Origin: Candidatus Krumholzibacteriota bacterium
GTDB lineage: Bacteria; Krumholzibacteriota; Krumholzibacteriia; JAJRXK01
Length of the DNA stretch: 64,000 bases
Assembly: GCA_029262065.1 (NCBI GenBank)
Contig: JAJDAC010000023.1
Location: 3,828-67,827 of the forward strand
Direction: 5' to 3'
This document shows positions 22,471 through 59,588 of the stretch, piece by piece. Position 1 is the first letter of the stretch. The number at the start of each line of letters is the position of its first letter. A program made the position numbers and the translations under genes. The notes beneath the pieces are model-generated. The model was given only the letters and a program-made list of their open reading frames with translations, made no database searches and was not told where the DNA came from.

Positions 22471-23115
22471 ATGCAGCTCTACCTGGAGAGTGCGGACCCC
22501 GACACGGTGCGCGAAGCCATGACCTGGAGCATTGTGGATGGGGTGGCCACATCGCCGCCGCTGCTGGCGCGAGCCGCCGGATCCTCTGAGGACCTGGTGA
22601 AAGAGCTCTGCGGCGTCGTAAATGGCCCGGTCTTCGTGGACGTAACATCGACTGACAGTGCGAACATGATCGAAGAGGCGCAGCTGTTGGCTAGCTTGGA
22701 CGACCGCGTCATCGTGCGCATTCCCTGCTCGAACACCGGCATTCCGGCCATCTCGGCGCTCGCCCAACAGCGTATTACGGTGGAGGCCGGATTGTGCTTC
22801 TCGCTTTCGCAGGCGTTGCTGGCCGCCAAGGCGGGGGCCAGGCTGGTTTCGCCCGCCGTGGGTGCCATGGATGCGGCCGGCGGAGACGGTCTCGCCCTGT
22901 TGGGCGCCATGATGACCATGCTCGATCAGTACGAAATGAAGGCCAGTGTGCACGCCGGCGGCCTGGAGCACCCGGGTCACGTGGCCGAAGCGGCCCGCAT
23001 GGGGGCCGACGGCGCCACGGTGTCGCTGGATCTGTTGGGGAAGCTGGCCGATCACCCCCTGACGCACGCGATGCGTGAGGGACAGCTGGACCAGTGGCGG
23101 CGAGCCCAGAATTAG
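22471..23115 (+). CDS. Transaldolase/fructose-6-phosphate aldolase family protein (TalC/FSA-like) with Arg at the expected Schiff-base Lys position
   Basis: MQLYLESADPDTV...GVATSPPLL...VIVRIPCSNTGIPAISAL...GLCFSLSQALLAAKAGARLVSPAVGAMD aligns to the TalC/FSA family. In the (V/I)K(I/V)P motif, codon 83 is CGC (Arg, nt 22717-22719). Confidence 0.8.
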   Translation: MQLYLESADPDTVREAMTWSIVDGVATSPPLLARAAGSSEDLVKELCGVVNGPVFVDVTSTDSANMIEEAQLLASLDDRVIVRIPCSNTGIPAISALAQQRITVEAGLCFSLSQALLAAKAGARLVSPAVGAMDAAGGDGLALLGAMMTMLDQYEMKASVHAGGLEHPGHVAEAARMGADGATVSLDLLGKLADHPLTHAMREGQLDQWRRAQN

Positions 23116-23152
23116 GGAACTGGTCCGCGTCTGGACGGTTGAAAGTAGAAGA

Positions 23153-24355
23153 ATGATGTCCGACAACAACCGCCTACCCTATGTCGTGGGAGCTCTCATG
23201 GGCCTGGCCCTGGGAGTATCCGTGCTGCTGTATTTCAGCCTGACCCAGCGCGGTGGTGAGCTACCCGTGCAAACCGGCGAATCGACCACTGGTTCCACCG
23301 ATTGGACAGACGCCGGTCCCGGTTTCAGCCCATCCCAGGTGATTTCCGACCAACGCGGGAACGCCATCGTCGAGGCCACCCGACGGGTTTCGCCGGCGGT
23401 GGTCAGCATCAACTCGATTCGTTCAGGCGCCACTACCCGGGTCATGCCGTTGCTGGACCTGTACACGCGGTCTCCACCCCAGAATGTCGGCGTGGGCAGC
23501 GGTTTCATCGTCGACGATCGTGGCTACATCTTGACCAACGAACACGTGATTCGCGAAGGCGATCAAGTGGTGGTCACGCTCAACAACGGTGAGCACTACG
23601 CGGCCGACATCCTGGGGCGCAGTGCCAAGTTCGATCTGGCGGTCCTGAAGATCCGCGGCGAAGAGATTCACGGTCTACCCGTGGTCGAGCTGGGCGACAG
23701 CGACGACGTCCTGGTAGGCGAGTGGGCCATCGCGATCGGCTCGCCGTTTGGGTATCTGCTGGACGACAGCAGCCCCACGGTCACCGTGGGTGTGATCAGC
23801 GCGGTGGGTCGTGACCTCAAGATGAACCAACCCTTGTACCTGGACATGATCCAGACCGACGCGGCCATCAACCAGGGCAACAGCGGTGGTCCTCTCGTGA
23901 ACAGCTTGGGTCAGGTGGTTGGTATCAACGCGTTCATCCTGAGTGAGACCGGCGGCTCCGTCGGGGTGAGCTTTGCCATCCCCGCCAATCGCGGGCGATG
24001 GGTGCTCGAGGAGATCCTGAAGTACGGAAGAATTCGCGAGTTCTACGCGGGTATGACCGGGGCTTTCCTATCGCCCTACCAGCGTCAAGACCTGCCGGAC
24101 GATGTACCCGATGGCTGGGCGGTATCCAACGTCGTTACCGGCTCGCCGGCCCACGAGGCGGGTATTCGAACCGGCGATATCCTGCGCGTGATCAACGGCG
24201 AACCCATCGTCAACAACCGTGCGTTGGTTCGCCGGTTGTACGAGGCTCGCGTAGGCGCCGTGCTGGAGTTCGTGGTGTGGCGCCACGGAAAAGGCGAGTT
24301 CCCGGCCCGGTTGACCCTGGTGGAGAGTCCGACCGGACCGAGACTTCAGCCCTGA
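23153..24355 (+). CDS. HtrA/DegP family periplasmic serine protease (S1C) with PDZ domain
   Basis: N-terminal TM anchor. Trypsin-fold motifs TNEHVI, DLAVLKI and GNSGGPLVN. C-terminal PDZ (GWAVSNVVTGSPAHEAGIRTGDILRVINGEPI). Confidence 0.88.
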   Translation: MMSDNNRLPYVVGALMGLALGVSVLLYFSLTQRGGELPVQTGESTTGSTDWTDAGPGFSPSQVISDQRGNAIVEATRRVSPAVVSINSIRSGATTRVMPLLDLYTRSPPQNVGVGSGFIVDDRGYILTNEHVIREGDQVVVTLNNGEHYAADILGRSAKFDLAVLKIRGEEIHGLPVVELGDSDDVLVGEWAIAIGSPFGYLLDDSSPTVTVGVISAVGRDLKMNQPLYLDMIQTDAAINQGNSGGPLVNSLGQVVGINAFILSETGGSVGVSFAIPANRGRWVLEEILKYGRIREFYAGMTGAFLSPYQRQDLPDDVPDGWAVSNVVTGSPAHEAGIRTGDILRVINGEPIVNNRALVRRLYEARVGAVLEFVVWRHGKGEFPARLTLVESPTGPRLQP

Positions 24356-24373: not shown

Positions 24374-24895
24374 CTACTGAAACCGCGCCTTCAGTTCGCT
24401 CCAGCTTGCGCTTACCACGGGCACCGAACAGGCCGAGGGCCCCTGGATTCGCACACCCATGAAGGTGAAGTTGGCGCAGAAGTCCTCGAGTTCCAGGCAT
24501 TTTCCCGAGTAGGTAACGGTCTGTTGGCCCGAGCCGGACACCGTCGTGCCGCTGACGGTATAGGTTTGCGTCAGCTCGAAATCGGCGGTGCAGCCGGGGA
24601 AGATCGGTGTCTCGAGATCGCTGCATTCGATCTCAATGGTGTTGCCATTGATGACCGTCGTGCACTCGCTCTCGAATTCCTCGTCGGGAGTCTCGATGCA
24701 GTCGTTCGAGCAGATCGTGTCGGTGAAGGTGTTGCTGGTCAGGACCTCTTCCGTTTCGCATATCGTGACTTCGCTCGTGATTTCCCATTCTCCAAACCAC
24801 TGGGCTCCCACTTCTTCGTCGTTGGCGTGGGCGTGGGAAAGAGAGAGGCCGAGAACCAAGACGACCGTCGCGAGGGTTCGATTCCAAGATGTCAT
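24374..24895 (-). CDS. Small secreted acidic Cys-rich protein, a distant third member of the 10962/11679 family (shared C-terminal tail)
   Basis: Signal peptide (MTSWNRTLATVVLVLGLSLSHAHA). Thr/Glu/Cys-rich mature part. Ends ...CSVPVVSASWSELKARFQ. GC is about 57%, lower than the flanking DNA. The track ORF 24374..24973 was trimmed to the Met that precedes the signal peptide. Confidence 0.55.
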   Translation of the reverse strand: MTSWNRTLATVVLVLGLSLSHAHANDEEVGAQWFGEWEITSEVTICETEEVLTSNTFTDTICSNDCIETPDEEFESECTTVINGNTIEIECSDLETPIFPGCTADFELTQTYTVSGTTVSGSGQQTVTYSGKCLELEDFCANFTFMGVRIQGPSACSVPVVSASWSELKARFQ

Positions 24896-26311: not shown

Positions 26312-26662
26312 GCGGTCGAATCCCGAGTGTACCCGGGTGCACCTGCCAGTGTGAAAAGGCGCCCCGCGGAGGATTCTTTCGAAGCACTCCGCGAGACGCA
26401 GTCAGACCACTACTGGCAAGGGCTTATCGAGAAGCTGCCCTCGTCACATGCGTTGTACACCGTGATTCCCCGCGTGGGCTCGATGATGATCCCGCTGGGC
26501 GCCGTGTACTCGGCGATGACGTAGGTCCCCGGGGGGAACGTCTTCCAGACGTGGGGCGCACTGAAGGTCAGATTCTGACCCCCTCTGGCGCGCCCCAACG
26601 ACCTGTGCTAGCTTCCCGTCTCACCGAACCCCGCCCACGCTCAACCCGCGCGAGATCATGGC

Positions 26663-37706: not shown

Positions 37707-38366
37707 CTAGGGCTGTTGATCCTGGGAGAACAACGGTAGTTCTCCGTCCCGCCGCCCTCCGGCCCCAGCGTTCCGCGCTGGGGCCGCGTTGTTTTGGGGT
37801 TCGGCCATGCCCACGCGAGCACCTACGCTGGTGACGTCGCCGAAGGTCTCGGCGTGTTCCAGTGCCTCCAGGTAGCCCAAAGCACGCTCGAGTTTGGGGT
37901 CTCGCGCCAGTAGTTTCTGGAACCGGGGTCCATGATTGAACACCACCAGGTGGATCAACTCGTGCAGAAGAAGGTGGCGAATTACCCAGCGTGGGTGACC
38001 CATCAGTCGATTGGTGATGCGGATGTGGCCGAACTGCCCGTCGAATGTGCAGCTTCCCCAGCGTTTCTTCTGACGGGCGCTGAACTCGACGCGGAAGGGC
38101 GGAAGTTGTAGCTCGGGTAGGAGCTCGTGCGCCACGGACTCGGCTTCGTCGAGCAGGTCACCCAGGGTCCAGACCGACTTGCGGCGAAGGGTTTGCCACA
38201 GTTGTGCGCGCAGCGAGGTCAGTACCTCGCGCAGGTCAGTCAGATTCATCCGATTCGGCGCGCGGGCCACCAGTGCGCCGTCTTCCAGGGTCAGCTCAAC
38301 CGATCGACGACGGCCTCGGAGTATCTTGATTTCGGCGGGGAACGGATCAGTTCCTTCTAGCTTCAC
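37707..38366 (-). CDS. YgjP-like metal-dependent hydrolase (DUF45/SprT-like fold)
   Basis: HELIHLVVFNHGPRF zinc motif in a YgjP/DUF45 context. The gene is convergent with rne with no intergenic gap. Confidence 0.8.
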   Translation of the reverse strand: MKLEGTDPFPAEIKILRGRRRSVELTLEDGALVARAPNRMNLTDLREVLTSLRAQLWQTLRRKSVWTLGDLLDEAESVAHELLPELQLPPFRVEFSARQKKRWGSCTFDGQFGHIRITNRLMGHPRWVIRHLLLHELIHLVVFNHGPRFQKLLARDPKLERALGYLEALEHAETFGDVTSVGARVGMAEPQNNAAPARNAGAGGRRDGELPLFSQDQQP

Positions 38367-39150
38367 GAAGCACCTTCAATTCCTGCTCGGTGAGGCTTTC
38401 GATTCCATGCTCAGTAATCTTGTCGAGGATCTGGTCGACCGAAAGGGTGCCGTCGGCCTGCTGTTCCTGCTGTTTTTTGTAGCCGCGCATCTGTCGACGG
38501 GCGCGTTCGCCTTGAATGCGCCGTCGCCACGCGTCCAGCCGCCAGTCCTGCTTCAGGTACAGGTAGCCAAACAGCATGCCTCCCAGATGGGCGAAGTGGC
38601 CAATGCCGTCCTGGCTGCGGTTGAGGCCCGAAAAAAGGTCGAGGGCCACGATCACCCAGATGAAGTACTTCATCTTTATGGGGAAAAGGAAATACAGCAG
38701 GATCTGTCGATCGGGATACATGAGCCCGTAGGCCAACACCACTCCCAAAACCGCACCGCTCGCCCCGATCGTGGGCACCATGCTGTTGGGTCCGGTAATC
38801 CAGGTGGTGATCCCGCCGCCCACGCCGCACACCAGGTAGTACGTGAGGAACGCCCTGTCCCCCCACTCGGCTTCGACCGCCGATCCGAACATCCACAACA
38901 TGAACATGTTGAACAGGATGTGGAATGGTCCGCCATGTAGGAACATGTACGTGAGGAGCTGCCAGACCTTGCCGCCCATGAACACTTCGGCCGGCACCAG
39001 GCCAAAGTTCTGGGTCATGAAGTTCTGATTCCAGCCAGCTAGCCACGTAAGCAGGAACAGACCGGTGTTGACGATCAGCAGCGCCTTGATCACCCTAGGC
39101 ATAGGGCCGGAGCCGAGGCCGAAGCGCATGCCCGCACGGGTGTAATTCAT
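38347..39150 (-). CDS. Rhomboid family intramembrane serine protease
   Basis: Six TM helices. Catalytic GASGAVLG (Ser) and HLGGMLFG (His) motifs. The cytoplasmic C-terminal tail is charged. Confidence 0.85.
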   Translation of the reverse strand: MNYTRAGMRFGLGSGPMPRVIKALLIVNTGLFLLTWLAGWNQNFMTQNFGLVPAEVFMGGKVWQLLTYMFLHGGPFHILFNMFMLWMFGSAVEAEWGDRAFLTYYLVCGVGGGITTWITGPNSMVPTIGASGAVLGVVLAYGLMYPDRQILLYFLFPIKMKYFIWVIVALDLFSGLNRSQDGIGHFAHLGGMLFGYLYLKQDWRLDAWRRRIQGERARRQMRGYKKQQEQQADGTLSVDQILDKITEHGIESLTEQELKVLREARRN

Positions 39151-44955: not shown

Positions 44956-47514
44956 CTACGCCGTGTAACTGCCTGGGGTTTCGTTTGTTTCTGCAATCGA
45001 GGCGTCGTCCAAATCCAGCTCTGAGGCCAAGGCCCGGATCACGATGAGGGTGATATCGTCCCCGGTATTTTCGCTCCCGGCATGGCTGAACACCGCATCG
45101 CGGATCCCGCTGACGATTTCGCCGGCTGGTTCGCGCGCCAGCCGGTGGACGATCTCCTCCAGACCGCATTCGCCGAATTGTTCCTCGGCGTGATCCTCTG
45201 CCTCGGTGACGCCGTCGGTGAACAGCACCAATACTTCGCCGGGCGCCATATAGATCTCCGACTCGGGGTACTCCATGCCAGGAAAGGCTCCCAGCGGCGT
45301 GGCGCCAACTTCCAGCCATTCGCAGGTGCCGTCGGCGCGCCGAAGCAGGGGGGGGTTGTGCCCCGCGTTGCTGTACAGCAGGTATCGTCGTTCGATATTC
45401 AGGGAAGCCAGAAACAGCGTGGCGAAGCGCTCGGGGTCGGTGCTTTCGTAGAGCGAAGTGTTCACGGCCGTGAGAATCGTGCCCGGCTGCGAGTGGCTCG
45501 CGGCCAGCGCGCGGATCGACGCCTGAAGATTGCTCGCCAGCAGCGACGCGGGCATTCCCTTGCCCGACACGTCGCTGATCACGATTCCCATGTTTCCATC
45601 GAGCAACGAAACAAAGTCGTAGTAGTCGCCACTGACCTGCGAAGACGCCAGATTCAACGCGGCGATCTCGAACCCGAGCACCACTGGTACGCTGCTGGGT
45701 AGCATGCGCTGTTGGATGCCGCGTGCCATGGCCATTTCTTCTTCGAGCTGGCGACGGTCGAGCGCATCCTGGTACAGGCGCGTGTTGTCGATCTGAACCG
45801 CCATCTGCCCGGCGACCGTTTGCAACAGTTCAAGCTCGTCGCCCTCGTAGGCCGCTTCGCTGCGCTTGGGACCCAACCCCAACACCGCCACCAGTCGTTC
45901 ACCGGCGAACCCGGGGACCAGTACTTCCAGCCCGGCGTGCTCCAGCACGCGCATCTCGCGGCGGAGCCTGGGATATCGATCCAGTTGCGCGCGTCCCATG
46001 CTACCGCGGGCGAGTCGGGCCAACTCGCTGGCCAGGTAGTCGGTGGTCAATGGCGCCGACCGGCGTTTGATCATTTCGGTGATCATGGGCAAGGCGGTGT
46101 GCGTTTCTTCGTTCCGGATCACCAAGATGCCGTCGTTCACGGGCACGAAGGCAAATTCACTGGGATGCAGCAACGATGTGATGCGTTCGCGGATGAGATC
46201 GGTGAGCTGCTGCACCTCGATGGTCGAGGGAATGGCCTTGGCCAGATCGGCCAGCGCCTGCTGCAGGTCGTGTTTTTCGCGGAAGAACTGTCGCTCGAGG
46301 AATCCCTGGATACGTTCGCGCGCCGGCGCGAATGCCGCTGCGATGAGCAATGTGGCAATGATGGCCACGAGCTGGCTGGTTTGGCCTGAAAGGCGCAGTA
46401 CCGTGTTTCCCACCAGCACCACGATCACCAGGTATGTACCAACCGTGATACCGGTGAGCGTACCGTAGACGATCGACCGCCGGATAATGACTTCCAGCTC
46501 CATCAGGCGATACCGCGCAATGGAATAACCGAAACTCACCGGTACCAACACCATGGGAATGGCGCCGAACAACGCGAATTCTTCGCGGCCCAGCAATTTG
46601 CCCAGCGCGATGTTGAACACCAGGAACGGCAGGGTGCCCAGCACCGTACCGATCGTCAGGATCTTCACTCGTTGGCGTAGCGTGGGGTCGGGGCTGGTCA
46701 CGTAGGTGGTCACCAGGCTGGCAAGTCCCGCCGTGAAGTAGAATCCCAACGTCATCTGTTGGATGACGGTTACCTTCGCCAGCGTGGTGCCAAAGAACTG
46801 GTTGTACGTGAACTGCGCGTAATACAGCAGCGGCAGCGTGTACAGCAGGGGTATGGCCCAGCGGTAGTGTCGGCGGAACCAGTCGCGCGGCTGCGGAAAC
46901 ACCAGGAAGAAGTGCAGGAACAGCGGCGGCAGCATCAAGCTGGCCAGCGTTCCGAAGTTTCGCGTGAGAACGTCGCTCCAGTAGTAGAACACACTGCGTT
47001 CACTGGCCGAGACGAAGTAGATGAGAAAAAGCGTGCATAGCAGGAAGAACAAACGCGCTGGAATGGTGTGGGAGTTGTTCCAGAACACGTAGAGGCCGGC
47101 CGCGAAATAGATGAGGGCCAACCCACAATACACCAGGTAGGTGCGCAGGTTTGCAATGCGCGTGCTTTCGAGTCGGATGGTCGTGGTGTCGGTGGTATTG
47201 GCCAGGCGGTCGAACACCAGGTACTCGACTTCATCGCCCACATTCTTGCTTTGCAGCAGCTGGGCCGCGTGCCGCGGCGAGCGAATGGGCTGCTGGTCGA
47301 TGCCCTCGATGATGTCGCCCACCTGCAGACCGGCGCGTTCGGCGGCGCCGCCGGGCACGGTTCCCACCACGCGGATCTTGGATCCGCCCAACACCCACAC
47401 CGCGCCGTCGGTCGGACGCGAGCGTGTGGCGTCATAGGCGCTGAACGCACCGGCGACCACCGCCAACAGACCAAAGGCCAGCAGGACGTTTCGAGTGGTG
47501 AAGATCACCGGCAT
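44956..47514 (-). CDS. Membrane sensor phosphatase with a periplasmic PDZ domain, a polytopic TM region, a GAF domain and a PP2C/SpoIIE phosphatase domain
   Basis: Signal-anchor then PDZ (GLQVGDIIEGIDQQPIRS). About 8 TM helices. GAF-like segment. PPM-type phosphatase motifs (SGDYYDF, ISDVSGKGMPASL, LFTDGVTEA). Confidence 0.85.
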   Translation of the reverse strand: MPVIFTTRNVLLAFGLLAVVAGAFSAYDATRSRPTDGAVWVLGGSKIRVVGTVPGGAAERAGLQVGDIIEGIDQQPIRSPRHAAQLLQSKNVGDEVEYLVFDRLANTTDTTTIRLESTRIANLRTYLVYCGLALIYFAAGLYVFWNNSHTIPARLFFLLCTLFLIYFVSASERSVFYYWSDVLTRNFGTLASLMLPPLFLHFFLVFPQPRDWFRRHYRWAIPLLYTLPLLYYAQFTYNQFFGTTLAKVTVIQQMTLGFYFTAGLASLVTTYVTSPDPTLRQRVKILTIGTVLGTLPFLVFNIALGKLLGREEFALFGAIPMVLVPVSFGYSIARYRLMELEVIIRRSIVYGTLTGITVGTYLVIVVLVGNTVLRLSGQTSQLVAIIATLLIAAAFAPARERIQGFLERQFFREKHDLQQALADLAKAIPSTIEVQQLTDLIRERITSLLHPSEFAFVPVNDGILVIRNEETHTALPMITEMIKRRSAPLTTDYLASELARLARGSMGRAQLDRYPRLRREMRVLEHAGLEVLVPGFAGERLVAVLGLGPKRSEAAYEGDELELLQTVAGQMAVQIDNTRLYQDALDRRQLEEEMAMARGIQQRMLPSSVPVVLGFEIAALNLASSQVSGDYYDFVSLLDGNMGIVISDVSGKGMPASLLASNLQASIRALAASHSQPGTILTAVNTSLYESTDPERFATLFLASLNIERRYLLYSNAGHNPPLLRRADGTCEWLEVGATPLGAFPGMEYPESEIYMAPGEVLVLFTDGVTEAEDHAEEQFGECGLEEIVHRLAREPAGEIVSGIRDAVFSHAGSENTGDDITLIVIRALASELDLDDASIAETNETPGSYTA

Positions 47515-50260: not shown

Positions 50261-50293
50261 ACCGCGCGGTTGGCGGCGGATATCCTTGTACAC

Positions 50294-52792
50294 ATGATTC
50301 TCCGCCTAGCTTCAGTCGCCTTGCTCGTGGCGATGGCCGCCGTGCCCGTGCAGGCTCGTACGTGGTACGGAGGCGGACCGGCCGGCGGATGGATCACCGA
50401 CCTTCTGCGTCCCACCGGTCCCACCGGATTCGTCTACGCGGCGACCTGGTTCGGCGGCGTATTCCGTAGCGGTGACAATGGCGCCACGTGGCAGGACTTC
50501 ACCGGTGACCTCGATGGCGTCCTGGTTTGGGATCTCGCATTCGCGTTCGATGGCACCTCGAGTCCGGCGGTGTTCGCGGCCACCGAGGACCGGGGCGTGT
50601 TCCGGGCTTTCGCCGGTCAGCCATGGGAAGCTGTGAATCGCGGCATCAGCACGCCCGACCCCGTGCCCGCCCGGGCACTTCAGATCCATCCGCACGACAT
50701 CGATGTAGTTACGGTGGCCACCAGCAACGGTATCTACACCAGCAACAACGGCGGTACGGACTGGCCCGATTCGTTGCATTGGTTACCGGGGTTCTCATTC
50801 AGCGACGTGGAAGTGTCGCCTCTGGCGCCCGTTACCATCTACGCCATGCAGAGTCAGGACCTGTATGTGAGCCCCGACAAGGGTCGCCGGTTCGACAAGT
50901 TGGGCGTTGAACAAGGTCTGCCGCCCAACGCCCTCTGGGTGGATGTGGAATTATTCGCAGCCAGTCTCGACACCATCATGGTGGCGTCGACGGCCCGCGG
51001 TGTATACGCGAGCGTTGATGCCGGCGAGAACTTCGCATACATCGGTCCCGCGCTCGAGAGCGAGCGCAACGGCATCATTCGGAGCATGACCACCGACGAT
51101 GAAAATGGCGCGTTGATTCTGGCCAGCGAAGACGGCGTGTTCAAGACGTACGACCTGGGCGATACCTGGGAAACGCTGATCAGTGGACTGGGCGTGGCCG
51201 CGCCACAGGTTTACGACGTTCTGGTTGACGACGCGGCGGACCAGACGCTGTTACTGGGAACGTTTCGTCACGGTGTGGTGCGCACCGGCCCGGGGGGGCA
51301 CGGTTGGCAGGAACAGAACCAGGGCCTGAACGCTTCGTTGAGTCGCGCGCTGCATGTACAAGGCGACGACGTGCTCGTGGGCACGGCCCACGGCGGTCTG
51401 TATCACAGCCAGGACGCCGCGAACAGCTGGCTCGACGTACGCGGCAACCTCGACGCCATCCAGATCAAGGACGTACACCGGTTCGTGTCGAGCGGCCGCT
51501 GGCTCGTGGCCTCCAGCGACGGCGTCTGGTTGAGCGACGATCAGGGTGATACCTGGCGAATGCCCACGATCCCGCCGGTCGAAACCAATGCCAACCGGTT
51601 CGTGGCACATGATGACCTGGGTGACACGGGCGTGTTCGTGGGTACGATTGCCGGCGTCTACAAATCGAACGACCAGGGTGACGTGTGGTCGCTGGTCACC
51701 GGCGTTCCCGCTACGCAGAACTACCTGGCCTTGGAATACGATCTTCAGACGCAGCAACTGTGGATCGGCGGCCTGAACGACGCGTTCTACGTGGGTCCGC
51801 CGCAGGGACCGTTCGAACGATTCGTGCCGCCACCGGGGGTGAGCCGGGCGATGTTCGATTTCGCCTTTCCGGGCACCGGAGCCATCGTGGCCTCGGGCAG
51901 CGATCTGTATCACCTGATTCCCGAACCCGGCGGTTATCAGGTGGTGTCCCTGGGTAACGGTCTTCCGTTTGGTGGTTTCGAGTCGGGTCCGGCGGTGAAG
52001 CAGGTCGAATACGACGCGCTGCGCGATCGCCTGTTCGTGGGGCTGAGTGAACGCGGCGTGTTCGAGGGGTCGGTCGTGGGTGGTCCGTGGGTAGCGCACG
52101 ACAGCGGATTGCGCGTACCGCGTATTGAACGACTGGTGTACTCCGAGGAATCGCAATTGTTGTACGCGGCCACGTTTGGCGGCGGTGTGTTTGCCCTGGA
52201 CGCGAGCGTTGGTGTGGCCGTACTCATGGGGGCTTTCGAGGCACGGTTGCGCAGCAGTTCCAACTGGGTGGACCTGACGTTCGAGTTGTTCGAAATGGCC
52301 TCGGTGGAAATCCTGCGATCGGTGGATGGCGGCCCTTTTGATCGCGTCTGGTACGGCTCCGCGATTTCGGCCGGCAGCCATACCGCCACCGATCAGCCAA
52401 CCGGTGCCGACCGATTCGTCGAATACCAATTGGTGGCTCGTTTCGACGAGGAAGTTGGTCAAGGCCAGGAAATCCGGCGGGGTGCACGCGTGCAGGTGCA
52501 GGGCCCGGCCCAGCTGTCGTTCAAGCTGGGTCCCAATTGGCCGAATCCGTTCAATCCTCGCACCACGATTCCGGTGGAACTCGTGGCCGCTTCGGATGTG
52601 CAACTGGAAGTCATCGATGTGCGCGGGCGCCGCGTTGCTCGGCTTTTTCGCGGGGTTCTGGAGCCCGGGCGCCACGAGTTCGTGTGGAACGGCAACGACG
52701 AGCGCGACATGCCGCTGCCCTCGGGCGTGTACCAGATCCGGCTTCGTGCCGGGCAGCATGTTCGCACCCATTCCATGACGCTGCTACGTTAG
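50294..52792 (+). CDS. Secreted BNR/Asp-box beta-propeller protein with a T9SS C-terminal sorting domain
   Basis: Signal peptide. Repeated SxDxGxTW motifs (SGDNGATWQD, SNNGGTDWPDS, SVDAGENF, SQDAANSWLD, SDDQGDTWRM, SNDQGDVWSL). C-terminal PNWPNPFNPRTTI...GVYQIRLRAG...MTLLR matches the T9SS CTD. Confidence 0.75.
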   Translation: MILRLASVALLVAMAAVPVQARTWYGGGPAGGWITDLLRPTGPTGFVYAATWFGGVFRSGDNGATWQDFTGDLDGVLVWDLAFAFDGTSSPAVFAATEDRGVFRAFAGQPWEAVNRGISTPDPVPARALQIHPHDIDVVTVATSNGIYTSNNGGTDWPDSLHWLPGFSFSDVEVSPLAPVTIYAMQSQDLYVSPDKGRRFDKLGVEQGLPPNALWVDVELFAASLDTIMVASTARGVYASVDAGENFAYIGPALESERNGIIRSMTTDDENGALILASEDGVFKTYDLGDTWETLISGLGVAAPQVYDVLVDDAADQTLLLGTFRHGVVRTGPGGHGWQEQNQGLNASLSRALHVQGDDVLVGTAHGGLYHSQDAANSWLDVRGNLDAIQIKDVHRFVSSGRWLVASSDGVWLSDDQGDTWRMPTIPPVETNANRFVAHDDLGDTGVFVGTIAGVYKSNDQGDVWSLVTGVPATQNYLALEYDLQTQQLWIGGLNDAFYVGPPQGPFERFVPPPGVSRAMFDFAFPGTGAIVASGSDLYHLIPEPGGYQVVSLGNGLPFGGFESGPAVKQVEYDALRDRLFVGLSERGVFEGSVVGGPWVAHDSGLRVPRIERLVYSEESQLLYAATFGGGVFALDASVGVAVLMGAFEARLRSSSNWVDLTFELFEMASVEILRSVDGGPFDRVWYGSAISAGSHTATDQPTGADRFVEYQLVARFDEEVGQGQEIRRGARVQVQGPAQLSFKLGPNWPNPFNPRTTIPVELVAASDVQLEVIDVRGRRVARLFRGVLEPGRHEFVWNGNDERDMPLPSGVYQIRLRAGQHVRTHSMTLLR

Positions 52793-54990: not shown

Positions 54991-55935
54991 CTAGGGATCA
55001 CGGGGCAGGACGGTCAATCCAATCGAATCGACAGAAGCCGACCCGAACAGGCCGATTCCGCCCTCTACGTGAAACAAGGGCCGATCGAAGCCGTCGCCCG
55101 TGTTGCCTCCGACCGTGAAGCCAGCCTCTGCCTCTGGAAGTGATCGCACCAGGTCGAACCAGTTTCGGTCGACCGAGTACACGTAGAATTTGTAGCGACC
55201 GGCGAAATAGATGGCCAACCAGGGCAGTCGAATCTCACCCTCTTCGGCGACGAACATGGGTGAACTGATAATGCGATCGAGATCATCAAAGTCTTCCTCA
55301 TCGAAGAACTCGGGGTCGATCACGAAGTCTGAGTCGAGGTCAAGGCTGAAAAGCCCCACCTCGTAGGCAATCTGGCGCGGGTCGGACAGGTCGCGGGCAA
55401 AGCGTGCCTCGAGCAGTCCGTCGGAGTACACCACCTGGTTGTCTTCGTAGACCTGGTCGCCTACGTCTTCGAAGTGGGTGAACTCACCCACCACCTCGGT
55501 CCCGTCGTCGTTCAGCACCAGCCAATCGATAGCACCAACGCGGGGTGGCGTCCGCGTGCGCGCGGTGATCAGTTCGTCGTCGGCGGTCAGCACGCGCAAT
55601 TCGTACATGGTGTCGGGCATCACGAGCGCGGCCGGGTCACCGGGCACGTACACGCCGCGTTGATCGGGCGACCGCACATAGAACAGCTCCATGCCGTCGC
55701 CAGTGATTCGCACGTCGGCGTTCTCTTCCACCGCAGCCACCGGATCGAACGGTTGGGTCGGGTCGAGCGTGCGGCCCACGCGAATGGCGGGAAATCGGGC
55801 GTCCACGCGTAGCACCGCGTCGACAACCACGACGCCTACTTCATTGGCGTTGAACAGATCGCGTTCGCATCCGGTGCTTGGCACCAGCGACGAAATCCCG
55901 ATCAAGAAGCCCAGGATTCTGGTTCTAGAATTCAA
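54991..55935 (-). CDS. Hypothetical lipoprotein encoded immediately downstream of the TonB-dependent receptor (DUF4249-like position)
   Basis: Lipobox LVPSTGC. Acidic. The start overlaps the TBDR stop. Confidence 0.6.
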   Translation of the reverse strand: MNSRTRILGFLIGISSLVPSTGCERDLFNANEVGVVVVDAVLRVDARFPAIRVGRTLDPTQPFDPVAAVEENADVRITGDGMELFYVRSPDQRGVYVPGDPAALVMPDTMYELRVLTADDELITARTRTPPRVGAIDWLVLNDDGTEVVGEFTHFEDVGDQVYEDNQVVYSDGLLEARFARDLSDPRQIAYEVGLFSLDLDSDFVIDPEFFDEEDFDDLDRIISSPMFVAEEGEIRLPWLAIYFAGRYKFYVYSVDRNWFDLVRSLPEAEAGFTVGGNTGDGFDRPLFHVEGGIGLFGSASVDSIGLTVLPRDP

Positions 55936-58186
55936 ACTCCACCCCCAGGCTGGGAATCAAGGGCAGCTGCTTGACCACGTCGGGCAGCTGGCCCGGATCG
56001 TTGATGTTGTACTGCACGAACCAATCGTTGCGGTTGCTGTAGGCGTTGAACAGCTGGAATTGCCATCGGGCGGGCAACCCGAACAGGGAGAATTCGCGTC
56101 GGGCGCTGAAGTCCAATCGGTGGTAGGGGAGCAGGCGGGCGCTGTTGCGGGCCGCCGGTAGGTATTCACCGAACTCGGGTACCAGACCCGTCGCGGGGTC
56201 GCGTAGTCCGAAGATGGCCGAGGCCGGTGTGAATGCCTGACCCGTGCCGTACACGAAATTGAATCCGAAATCCCACGCCCCGCGCGACACGCTCATGACG
56301 GCCTTGAAATCGTGGCGGCGATCGTACTTGGGAGCGAACTCGTTGCCTTCGTTCACCTCGGCAAAGGTTCGACGGGTCCAACCCAACGTGTACCCCAACC
56401 AGCCGGTCACGCGTCCCTTTTTCTTCTGGATGAATACTTCGGCTCCGGTCGCGTAGCCCGTACCGCCGGTCAGAAAAATTGTCGTGGCGTCGACCTGACT
56501 CTCATCGACGGGAGCCTCGGTATCGAACAACACCAGGCTCTGCAGGTCGGTGTAGTAGCCCTCGACCGCGGCGGACCAGGTGCCGCCGGCATCCCATTCG
56601 AGTCCCAGCACCGACTGGACCGAGCGGCTGGGATCGGTGGTGTCGTCGATGGGGAGGTAGAAATCGGCCGCGGCAAAGCCCTCCGTGCTCACAAGCTGCA
56701 GGTACTGGTAGTAGAGGCCACCGGCCGCTTTCACCTGCCACTGGTCGTTGATCTTCTGCCGCAACGAAAGCCGCGGCTCGACGAGCCTGCGATTGCCGTC
56801 GTCGAGAAACCGTGCGCGTGCCCCCAGTCGAAGCGTGGTCTCGGGCCGTGGTCGCCAGAGATCTTCCGCGTATACCGAGTATTCCTTGGGCCGGCGATCA
56901 AAGTCGACGTCCACGTCGCGGTTGAAGGATTGCAGGAACTCGAACCGGTACGTCGACGCAGCAACTCCCAGTTTGAGCCGGTGATGCGGTGGTAGCGCCA
57001 CGCTCAAGCTGGCTTGGCCCGAAACGTCGTTGAGTTCGTTCTCGATCGAGATGGGGGTGGTGAGCACCTGAAAGTCGCTGTCGCTGCGGTATCGACTCCA
57101 CGATCCCACGACATTGGCGACCACGCGTTCGCCGATGACGCGGGTCCAGGCGCTGGAAGCGATCGTGTTTCCCCAGGTAAGGTTCAGGAATGTGTCGGGG
57201 TCGGGTTCCACCCTCAGCACATCGTTGCTTCGATACAGCCAGAACTCGAACTTGTTGTTGCCGCGGGGCAGGGTGTACTTCGCATTGCCATCGTAGAAAT
57301 AATAGGAGGGAATTTCCGAATTGTTGCGTCGCAAAGCGTTGAGTATGGGGTCCAGGTACGTGCGGCGTCCTCCCAACGACCAGGTTCCACCGGCCAGAGG
57401 GCCCTCGACCTGCGCGCGCGCGGCGATGGTGCTTATGCCGACGCGGCCCGAAACCTCGTTGGCCGTGTTGCCGCGGCTACGCACGTCGAGTACCGAGCCC
57501 AGCCGGCCCCCGTATTCGGCCGGGTAGGCGCCCTTGAACAGGGTGACCTGATCGACCATGGCGGGGTTGAAGGTGGAGAACAACCCGAACGCGTGCGTCG
57601 GGTTGTAGATCGGCACCTGATCCAGCAACACCAGGTTCTGGTCGGGCCCACCGCCCCGCACATACAGACCGCTGGAAATGTCGGAGGCGGCCTGCACCCC
57701 GGGCAGGAGCTGGAGCGCGCGTATGGGGTCGGCCTCGCCGATGGCGGGGATGGAAGCCAAGTCGTCCGAGGTGAGTTTCACGAAACCGGCCTGGACCTCT
57801 TCCTCCACCTGGTCGCGGTCACCGAATACCACCTGCTCTTCCATTTCGATGGCTTTTACCACCATGCGAACCACGAGCGGCTCGTCCTGCCCCGTCAGGG
57901 CAATGGGTAGGGTGAGGGAGTCGTATCCGATGTAGGAGAACTTCAACTCGTAGCGCCCCGGCGGCAGGTCGGTGACCGTGAATCCCCCGTCGGTCCGGGT
58001 CAGGACGCTCTGATCCACGTTGCCCGTATCGGTGCTGGTTATCGCCACGACACAGAAAGCCAGAGGGGCATTGTCTTCGTCGTCGACGACCACGCCGGCC
58101 AGATTGGCCGCGTGTACATTCGACGACAGTGTGACCAACAGACACGCAATCCAGCCCAGTATGGCCATGCGAACCTTCGGAAACAT
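55925..58186 (-). CDS. TonB-dependent outer-membrane receptor with an N-terminal carboxypeptidase-regulatory-like domain
   Basis: Start at ATG 58186 with a GAGGA SD, and the 126-aa upstream extension in the track was rejected. Signal peptide. The CarbopepD_reg-like segment is AGVVVDDEDNAPLAFCVVAI...TVTDLPPGRYELKFSYIGY. Plug motifs are present. The C-terminal OMP ending is ...SLGVEFEF. Confidence 0.88.
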   Translation of the reverse strand: MFPKVRMAILGWIACLLVTLSSNVHAANLAGVVVDDEDNAPLAFCVVAITSTDTGNVDQSVLTRTDGGFTVTDLPPGRYELKFSYIGYDSLTLPIALTGQDEPLVVRMVVKAIEMEEQVVFGDRDQVEEEVQAGFVKLTSDDLASIPAIGEADPIRALQLLPGVQAASDISSGLYVRGGGPDQNLVLLDQVPIYNPTHAFGLFSTFNPAMVDQVTLFKGAYPAEYGGRLGSVLDVRSRGNTANEVSGRVGISTIAARAQVEGPLAGGTWSLGGRRTYLDPILNALRRNNSEIPSYYFYDGNAKYTLPRGNNKFEFWLYRSNDVLRVEPDPDTFLNLTWGNTIASSAWTRVIGERVVANVVGSWSRYRSDSDFQVLTTPISIENELNDVSGQASLSVALPPHHRLKLGVAASTYRFEFLQSFNRDVDVDFDRRPKEYSVYAEDLWRPRPETTLRLGARARFLDDGNRRLVEPRLSLRQKINDQWQVKAAGGLYYQYLQLVSTEGFAAADFYLPIDDTTDPSRSVQSVLGLEWDAGGTWSAAVEGYYTDLQSLVLFDTEAPVDESQVDATTIFLTGGTGYATGAEVFIQKKKGRVTGWLGYTLGWTRRTFAEVNEGNEFAPKYDRRHDFKAVMSVSRGAWDFGFNFVYGTGQAFTPASAIFGLRDPATGLVPEFGEYLPAARNSARLLPYHRLDFSARREFSLFGLPARWQFQLFNAYSNRNDWFVQYNINDPGQLPDVVKQLPLIPSLGVEFEF

Positions 58187-58277
58187 CGAATCCTCGTTGC
58201 TGGCGGGGGTTTGTCGATCTACCATCGGGCCTCGCCCCGTTCCTTGCATGTGGCCTGCCAGGCAGAAGTCCGGATCC

Positions 58278-59588
58278 ATGAACCCACCCTTGAAGCCACG
58301 CCAGAAGCTTGGCAAGTACCGCATCCTACGTCGGATTGCCGACGGAGGTTTCGCGCGTGTGTACCGCGCCCACGACACCGTCGAGGGCATAGACGTAGCC
58401 CTCAAGATTCCCCATGCACATCTGATAACCGAGGGCACGCTGGTCGATTTTCGCCGCGAGGCGCGCATCACGGCGCGGCTGGAGCACCCGAACATACTTC
58501 CCCTCAAGAACGCCGATTTCATCGACGAACGCTTCGTGATTGCCTCGCCACTGGGCGAAGGCACGTTGGAAGAGCGGTTGGGGCGACGAATTACACTGAC
58601 GCGTTCGTTGGATTACGCCGATCAGATTCTCGCGGCACTAGCTTACGCGCATTCTCATCGGGTGATCCACTGCGATGTGAAGCCCGACAACTTCATGCTG
58701 TTCGAGCCCGATCGCCTTCGCCTGGGGGATTTCGGCATTTCCAAGGTCCAGTTGCAGACCATGATGAGCGCGTCGGGCTCGGGTACGTTGGGGTACGTGG
58801 CGCCCGAGCAGGCCATGGGCCGCCCAACCTACCGGTCGGACTGCTTTTCGGCGGGGCTCATCATCTACCGGATGCTCGTGGGAGAGTTGCCGAGTTGGCC
58901 GTTCAACTGGCCATTGCCCGGCAATGAGCGGCTGCGACGCAAGGTGTCGCCGGCCATGATCAGCTTTCTGAAGCGTAGCCTCATGGTCGACGAAAAAAAG
59001 CGGTTCCGTGACGCAGGCCAGATGCAGGCGGCTTTTGCCCGCATCAAGCCGCGCGAGCTGAGTCGTGCGAACTCGCAATCCTCGCCCAAGAAGAAGGTCC
59101 AGAAGGACTGGCGAGCGCTGCGGCAGCGAGCCTTCCAGCGTATCTACGGGCGCGAGCTGGGCACCAAACACGAGTGCGGCCGTTGCCGTCGCCCCGTGAG
59201 CGAGGCCATGCGTTGGTGCCCATGGTGTGCGAATACCCGGCGGGTCCACCGCGACGACAGCGCCTTTCCGAAGCAGTGCCGGCGCTGCGGCCGCGGTATG
59301 AAGTTGGATTGGGTGTATTGCGCGCATTGTTACGGTGCATCGCAGGGACCCGACTCCGATCGATCCTACACCGACAAGCGCTACACCCATCGTTGCGGCA
59401 GCTGCAAGGGCGACCTCATGCCACACATGCGCTACTGCCCGTGGTGTCGGCGCAAGGTGTTGCGTAAGTGGAAGCTGGAATCGGGGGGCAACAAATGTAC
59501 TTCGTGTGGTTGGGATGTCGCGGGGGAGTTCTGGCGCCACTGTCCGTGGTGCGGCACTGGCATGACCCATGAAAAGGCGCGTCCATGA
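58278..59588 (+). CDS. Hanks-type Ser/Thr protein kinase with four C-terminal zinc-ribbon (CxxC...CPWC) motifs
   Basis: Kinase subdomains (VALKIP; HRVIHCDVKPDNFML; DFG; GTLGYVAPE). The C-terminus carries HECGRCRR...RWCPWCAN, KQCRRCGR...VYCAHCYG, HRCGSCKG...RYCPWCRR and NKCTSCGW...RHCPWCGT. Confidence 0.85.
   Translation: MNPPLKPRQKLGKYRILRRIADGGFARVYRAHDTVEGIDVALKIPHAHLITEGTLVDFRREARITARLEHPNILPLKNADFIDERFVIASPLGEGTLEERLGRRITLTRSLDYADQILAALAYAHSHRVIHCDVKPDNFMLFEPDRLRLGDFGISKVQLQTMMSASGSGTLGYVAPEQAMGRPTYRSDCFSAGLIIYRMLVGELPSWPFNWPLPGNERLRRKVSPAMISFLKRSLMVDEKKRFRDAGQMQAAFARIKPRELSRANSQSSPKKKVQKDWRALRQRAFQRIYGRELGTKHECGRCRRPVSEAMRWCPWCANTRRVHRDDSAFPKQCRRCGRGMKLDWVYCAHCYGASQGPDSDRSYTDKRYTHRCGSCKGDLMPHMRYCPWCRRKVLRKWKLESGGNKCTSCGWDVAGEFWRHCPWCGTGMTHEKARP

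Follow-up and report, generated by a model that had tools for sequence, protein, structure and literature searches.

Why should three exported proteins encoded in one stretch of bacterial DNA end in almost the same nine residues, when the likeness of one of them to the other two is confined to its last ~10-18 residues? The stretch, a 64-kb segment here called the window, encodes protein C and the two paralogs A and B, and all three end in, or one residue after, the sequence SWSx[VL][KR][AG]RF. The preliminary description of this DNA offered three meanings for the shared tail, namely a protease-recognition or PDZ-binding tag, a novel sorting signal, or the hallmark of a new protein family. We asked which of these agrees best with the three proteins themselves, with the distribution of the tail beyond them and with the C-terminal signals already known from bacteria.

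Three exported proteins and their common tail

Protein C (24374-24895, minus strand; 173 aa in the ORF listing) is exported, acidic and rich in Thr and Cys, as had been described. It starts with a predicted signal peptide (24824-24895, minus strand; MTSWNRTLATVVLVLGLSLSHAHA, then NDEE) recognised by eye from its hydrophobic core and an AHA-N cleavage-type site, and the mature protein has a pI of 4.05, 14% Thr and 9 Cys. The low GC content reported for the gene held up, at 58% measured where about 57% had been claimed, but the 5 kb on either side have 64.5% GC and not 66%. The chain ends ...ACSVPVVSASWSELKARFQ, and its tail module (24377-24430, minus strand) reads C-SVPVVSA-SWSELKARF-Q and aligns with the other tails (alignment A2); SWSELKARF corresponds to positions 24380-24406 of the minus strand and is followed by Q and the stop codon. 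Neither Pfam nor NCBIfam gave a match to C, and a word-index search for homologs returned C alone.

Protein A (10938-11579, plus strand; 213 aa, or 205 aa from an alternative start at 10962) is likewise exported and combines a predicted, weakly cohesin-like β-sandwich body with the tail. Protein B (P0003; 11679-12320, plus strand; 213 aa) is its tail-bearing paralog with 40% identity. Their tail modules, both on the plus strand, are located at 11523-11576 (DPAVAIEST-SWSAVRGRF) and 12264-12317 (DPTVATTND-SWSAVRARF), and the stop codon comes directly after SWSAVRGRF of A (11550-11576) and SWSAVRARF of B (12291-12317). The A/B family consists of proteins of ~200 aa with 8 conserved Cys and has no Pfam model; A and B were matched by neither Pfam nor NCBIfam, and a word-index search with A found only A itself, missing even its paralog B. 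The BLASTP alignment of C with B comprises the 9-residue tail only. A Cys said to lie about 12-20 residues before the chain end in all three proteins is indeed 17 residues from it in C, but 22 in A and B.

All three proteins thus carry the tail attributed to them, and its conservation is genuine and above chance. A tail profile, for which the 15 real tails of alignment A2 were used, scored A, B and C at 26.5-27.2 bits (C 26.5), against a best score of 7.7 bits elsewhere in the six-frame translation of the window, one stretch at 26525-26578 apart, and of 9.2 bits among reversed decoys. The codons used for the tail differ between the genes (Ser TCG vs AGC; Arg CGT, CGC or CGG; Phe TTC vs TTT), so that conservation acts at the protein level, and a shared DNA or RNA element as the source of the tail is ruled out. 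Rfam revealed nothing credible around C and in the purB-purL spacer.

This spacer contains the stretch set aside above. On the plus strand, 17 codons at 26525-26578 read VPGGNVFQTWGALKVRF and are followed by a stop. The stretch scored 16.4 bits with the tail profile compared with a noise maximum of 7.7-9.2, has a coding-like GC1/GC2/GC3 pattern and continues the reading frame of a 65-codon ORF (26327-26524), from which a single TAG separates it. ORF and stretch together are without a signal peptide, and an antisense ORF of 62 codons (26410-26598) overlaps the putative tail. It may represent a decayed or mis-assembled fourth tagged gene.

A wider motif on unrelated proteins

Homologs of A and B place the window tails in a broader setting. 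With an A+B profile, full HMMER searching across 1.84 billion representative proteins returned 17 of them at E < 1e-10, namely A, B and 15 further ones. Most full-length remote homologs keep the motif 0-5 residues from their end (15 proteins, alignment A3), as exemplified by the termini ...APVPVAPRTWGAIKALFRDP, ...SPVAVEPVSWGAVKAIYR, ...AIPQPSWSALKARW and ...VPESWSTLKSRFPSP; two homologs (P0007 and P0009) have lost the tail Trp. A metagenome scan with a 6-sequence subset yielded 7 loci, at which the A/B homologs end ...APVPVESSTWGAIK[AS]LY.. and the motif is kept in 6/6 complete ones. The general motif can be written P-V-x(5-7)-[ST]-W-[GST]-x-[IVL]-[KR]-x-x-[FYW]-x(0-5)-end, where a single extra residue is commonly R. 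SWSx[VL][KR]xRF is a local form of this wider tail motif. Residues after the conserved aromatic vary (R, RE, VE, RDP, PSP, Q and others) and number 1-5 in most tails; the terminal residue across tails is F, Q, R, E, D, P, W or V.

One of the metagenome loci, a 157-kb contig (L026), shows an A/B homolog that is split into two parts on the plus strand, 9956-10354 (132 aa) and 10355-10603 (82 aa, with the tail), which hints at a frameshift or pseudogene. Just upstream of this homolog is the gene of an IPTL-CTERM protein (8796-9650), and downstream are genes of multihaem-like CxxCH proteins.

The tail is also found on proteins unrelated to A, B and C. A codon-pattern scan for the window-type tail in one genome per species gave 23 matches, about the number expected by chance, 1 of which (1/23) is situated at a real gene end. 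This is a lamin-tail-domain protein (LTD, PF00932) from a Candidatus Krumholzibacteriota MAG (L014), the closest tail match of the window; its end ...NCVAVPVDESSWSSVKVRF is very close to ...ACSVPVVSASWSELKARF of protein C. R-F at positions 8-9 of the motif is present in all window tails (A/B, C and the putative relic) and in this LTD protein, but in only ~5/19 A/B-family tails from elsewhere. The common form of the motif, searched for in IMG/VR as WGx[IV]KxφYR followed by a stop, produced 14 matches on contigs of 55-70% GC, ~11-12 of them at the end of real ORFs. At least 10 further unrelated tail carriers were identified on IMG/VR contigs, including a Laminin_G_3 protein, a calcineurin-like metallophosphoesterase and ~8 proteins without assignment; as the scan patterns fix several motif residues, these examples give no estimate of variability. 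A semi-synthetic alignment (A5), composed of 19 real tails and 126 designed recombinants, gave 23 candidates and 0 true ones and proved unsuitable for a 10-residue motif; none of the conclusions drawn here depends on the designed rows. From this genome the data covered 64 kb, and other loci contributed ~200 kb.

When the tails were removed, 15 carriers fell into 13 groups unrelated by BLASTP, with the LTD, Laminin_G_3 and metallophosphoesterase proteins among them. The tail is hence a module, and the idea that it marks a new protein family does not hold as worded. The motif is not a peculiarity of the three window proteins, which by the preliminary description would have refuted the tag hypothesis; it is widespread, and its exact RF form is rare. 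Most carriers have signal-peptide-like N-termini and many are Cys-rich, which makes disulfide bonding plausible. The carriers of loci L036 and L037 are without a clear signal peptide, and for those in L040 and L042 the hydrophobic N-terminus may rather correspond to the strand with which the phosphoesterase fold begins.

The position of the motif is strictly C-terminal. Stop-free DNA scans returned 11 matches, 10 of which are real tails, all of them located <=1 residue from the stop codon; the eleventh is found in a 24-codon ORF on a contig of 38% GC. A control of similar design with the RF form gave 59 matches, 1 at the end of an ORF of >=100 aa and none tail-like by score. Random pattern matches therefore miss gene ends, and the RF form is rare outside the lineage of the window.

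Several tagged genes are located on phage contigs as judged from PHROGs annotation. One gene (L037, 12449-12991, minus strand) shares its contig with portal, major head, minor tail and tape-measure genes. An adjacent pair (L044, 5096-5722 and 5566-6423, plus strand), one member of which ends in the variant SWGQVKAKYSSSGAR, is accompanied by a tail protein gene, and a further tagged gene (L035, 3152-3598, minus strand) by an exonuclease gene. Since L037 and L044 are true phage contigs, phages also encode tagged proteins.

Adjacent proteases and known C-terminal signals

Structure prediction separates the tail of A from its body. The AlphaFold2 model of A, calculated from a 15-sequence alignment, has a mean pLDDT of 86.3 and a pTM of 0.77 and comprises a confident β-sandwich body; mean pLDDT of the last two 10-residue blocks is 62 and 55, and residues 206-212 form a separate short helix. 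A helix is also predicted at 165-172 of C in a poor single-sequence AlphaFold model (pLDDT 39.9). In its common form, the tail has a hydrophobic moment of 0.5-0.67 as a helix compared with 0.2-0.3 as a strand; as a helix it would bring W, I/V and Y/F together on the same side, next to K/R, and the conserved S/T that precedes the Trp would be suited to an N-cap. The moments of the window RF form are comparable for strand and helix. In Foldseek, every one of the best PDB matches of the A model was a cohesin module, with the copper-binding protein YcnI coming next, and the similarity was weak (cohesin E-value 5e-4 at best; query-normalised TM-score 0.3-0.4). Solved cohesins are jelly-roll β-sandwiches of nine strands.

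Two proteases next to the tagged genes had inspired the view that the neighbouring enzyme recognises the tail, as a PDZ ligand or protease-recognition tag, with HtrA in this role for C and the M16 peptidase for A and B. The gene arrangement itself was correctly described. An HtrA-family serine protease with Trypsin_2 and PDZ domains (23075-24355, plus strand) is convergent with C across a gap of 18 bp, and a double M16 peptidase (12540-15377, plus strand) follows B. The ORF of the latter is open from 12363; a 945-aa gene call on the identical contig L001 makes 12540, ~220 bp downstream of B, the likely start. HtrA-family PDZ domains bind free C-terminal peptides of misplaced outer-membrane proteins (PMC8545111), and A and B end in R-F. 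C, however, ends in Q, and most tails have R, E, D or P after the aromatic. With 1-5 extra residues at this place in most tails, what is conserved is not a free x-x-Phe carboxyl end, and the conserved free hydrophobic C-terminal residue typical of HtrA/DegS ligands is absent from the tails as a group. The likeness to the peptides that activate the PDZ domains of DegS and AlgW (Y-x-F-COOH) is limited to the aromatic end of A and B and the HtrA gene beside C, and neither the terminal residue nor the protease adjacency is conserved. By tblastn, no homolog of the window HtrA, M16 or rhomboid proteins was found in 24 other tail-bearing loci (201 kb). The HtrA gene is embedded among housekeeping genes (truA, an aldolase-like gene and purB), consistent with chance adjacency. 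From gene order, then, the proximity of proteases and tail genes is probably best explained as coincidence; we regard a PDZ or protease tag as very improbable, and the tempting link of the tail to the HtrA and M16 proteases was removed as unsupported.

The window encodes a second PDZ protein, 852 aa long (44959-47514, minus strand), in which the PDZ domain is N-terminal and is accompanied by a PP2C phosphatase domain of the SpoIIE type and a weak match to GAF.

Among known signals, the type A C-terminal domain of the type IX secretion system (T9SS; TIGR04183/PF18962, FlgD_ig-like) resembles the tail in being attached to the C-terminus of Sec-exported cargo with unrelated passengers. It occurs in many copies per genome and in the same genomes as the tail (the window, L014 and L027). 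Two proteins of the window, an M6 peptidase (3728-6304, plus strand) and a Sortilin/BNR-repeat protein (50270-52789 or 50261-52792, plus strand), are T9SS-type cargo with a FlgD_ig/Por_Secre_tail C-terminal domain, indicating that this genome uses T9SS signals beside the short tail. The two signals never occur on the same protein in the loci seen, and none of the T9SS models (TIGR04183, PF18962, FlgD_ig-type) matched A, B or C even at E <= 1. While the T9SS type A domain is a compact Ig-like β-sandwich of 7 strands (PMC11285876), the part common to unrelated tail carriers amounts to at most ~20 residues, a linker and one short helix.

The tripartite signals also have points in common with the tail. 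LPXTG, PEP-CTERM, GlyGly-CTERM and IPTL-CTERM sequences consist of a signature, a transmembrane helix and a basic cluster, in this order. Like the tail they are short, C-terminal, modular, found on exported proteins and split into lineage variants; unlike them, the tail has 8-9 residues after the Trp and is devoid of a hydrophobic span. No CTERM model matched the tail carriers, and the true IPTL-CTERM protein of contig L026 was detected by Pfam.

The anchors of the DD-carboxypeptidases PBP5 and PBP6 (PMC2909392) resemble the tail as amphipathic helices with which soluble proteins exported by Sec end, a property that the helices in the models of A and C reproduce computationally. The PBP5 helix differs in that it is longer and belongs to one enzyme family, rather than being a motif shared by unrelated proteins. 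The β-signal of outer-membrane proteins (OMPs) and its mimicry by lectin-like bacteriocins, in which a soluble domain carries a short C-terminal peptide, also feature a C-terminal aromatic (PMC3582582; bioRxiv 10.64898/2026.09.25.754295). As the last strand of a β-barrel, the β-signal normally has the aromatic as its final residue. The tail is of helix type, usually has R or more residues after the aromatic and resides on soluble folds, given the soluble β-sandwich of A and the LTD, Laminin_G_3 and metallophosphoesterase carriers. A final aromatic combined with strand-type hydrophobicity is absent from its common form; the window RF form is ambiguous in this respect.

No model of Pfam 2025 or NCBIfam June 2026 describes the tail or matches it in any carrier, and the same libraries found the true T9SS and IPTL-CTERM signals in the same loci. 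Our literature search found no paper that describes the motif or such a signal in these phyla, although this absence does not prove that nobody has noted the tail. As far as sequence comparison can tell, the tail would be new as a C-terminal tag that has neither the transmembrane helix of sortase-type signals nor the folded domain of the T9SS.

A possible sorting or retention tag

Of the meanings proposed at the outset, a novel sorting signal fits best, as the tail is modular, strictly C-terminal, attached to unrelated Sec-type exported proteins and present beyond this genome. We consider it somewhat more likely than not that the tail is a sorting or retention tag of this kind on Sec-exported proteins of unrelated folds, whose exposed helix is bound by a common envelope component. 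Such a tag would be built from a short linker, usually with P-V, an S/T helix cap, an amphipathic helix of 8-9 residues (W-[G/S]-x-[I/V/L]-[K/R]-x-x-[Y/F/W]) and 0-4 final residues, most often a single R. The tagged protein would be exported by Sec and fold, the exposed tail helix would then be bound by one common envelope component, and binding would sort or retain the cargo at the cell envelope or surface, with or without later removal of the tail. In the window, three or four genes have a version specific to the lineage, SWS..[KR].RF. If unrelated proteins encoded by the same genome have changed to R-F in concert, one common reader is suggested, an argument based on three independent window tails and one MAG protein. 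We infer that the tail acts as a sorting or retention signal and that this reader would be a protein partner rather than lipid alone. Neighbouring ORFs differ from one A/B-homolog locus to the next, none being conserved, and a co-occurring machinery gene was found neither there nor in the 24 tail loci (201 kb).

The main rival explanation dispenses with a receptor. By analogy with E. coli PBP5, a periplasmic enzyme held in this way (PMC2909392), the short C-terminal amphipathic helix could serve as an anchor at the membrane interface. The helices predicted at the extreme C-terminus of A and C agree with this, as do the one-sided arrangement of W, I/V and Y/F, with K/R at its flanks, and the helical moment given above. 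Generic membrane-binding helices can drift considerably in sequence, however, whereas unrelated proteins have the tail W, the next residue, the K and the aromatic almost unchanged. Moreover, tail residues change together within a genome, SWS..RF being found in all window copies, and 8-9 residues are short for stable anchoring, so that we find a receptor-free anchor unlikely, though worth serious consideration. A peptide that docks proteins to each other, for example by binding the cohesin-like bodies of A and B into extracellular assemblies, appears improbable. Cohesins bind short helical dockerin partners, the model of A is most similar to cohesin modules, and tail genes can occur in tandem (A/B and the adjacent pair in L044). 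Against this, the fold match is weak, as the Foldseek values indicate, the tail does not contain a Ca-binding dockerin repeat, and A and B are themselves tail-bearing.

Still less would we expect the tail to act in the manner of a β-signal and to engage BamA, or a different member of Omp85, for surface display or inhibition. The aromatic near the C-terminus and the comparable strand and helix moments of the window form would permit it, and in lectin-like bacteriocins soluble lectin domains possess a C-terminal peptide that pairs with strand 1 of BamA (bioRxiv 10.64898/2026.09.25.754295). The passengers of the tail, however, are soluble folds and not barrels, its common form is amphipathic as a helix and not as a strand, and residues follow the aromatic. 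The bacteriocin peptide is hypervariable according to the same study, whereas the tail is conserved. In addition, the TonB-dependent receptor of the window, which displays the genome's own OMP C-terminus, ends ...GVEFEF, a different pattern. An attachment to peptidoglycan through the conserved Lys, as in Lpp, was also considered and rejected; A and B have Arg at this position, and the Lys is never terminal.

In a broader and more tentative form, which we put forward as possible but doubtful, the sorting-tag reading would make the tail part of a new sorting or surface-retention system of uncultivated T9SS-bearing (FCB-type) bacteria. Such a system would consist of a tag of ~10-20 residues without a transmembrane segment, an envelope receptor or peptidase and lineage-specific versions of the tag, and phages would have borrowed the tag to place proteins in the host envelope.

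The gene content of the window provides the background for this proposal. Its housekeeping genes, which from their ORF translations we take to be proS, pdxS/T, alaS, truA, purB and purL, have Pfam support for alaS only. The receptor mentioned above is a SusC-like TonB-dependent receptor (55928-58564, minus strand) with CarboxypepD_reg and Plug domains; it is the neighbour of a DUF4249 protein (54994-55935, minus strand), a pairing in Bacteroidota/FCB style. A rhomboid-family intramembrane protease (38350-39150, minus strand; PF01694) with a DUF6576 C-terminal region is encoded as well. Relatives of rhomboid process some C-terminal sorting signals; no link of this protease to the tail was found, and the other tail loci contain no homolog of it. 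Taken together, the housekeeping genes, the T9SS cargo, the SusC-like receptor and the rhomboid protease identify the window as a chromosomal segment of an uncultivated T9SS-bearing bacterium.

C-terminal signals of sortase, exosortase, rhombosortase and T9SS substrates have repeatedly led to new envelope machineries. The tail described here fits none of these classes, although exported proteins without mutual relationship, and lineages known from metagenomes only, have it conserved. If it is a sorting signal, the tail would define a set of cargo proteins for which a simple profile scan could supply the list, and its cognate machinery would become approachable by phylogenetic profiling. It would then also improve the annotation of many "hypothetical" secreted proteins in Krumholzibacteriota-like genomes and in their phages.
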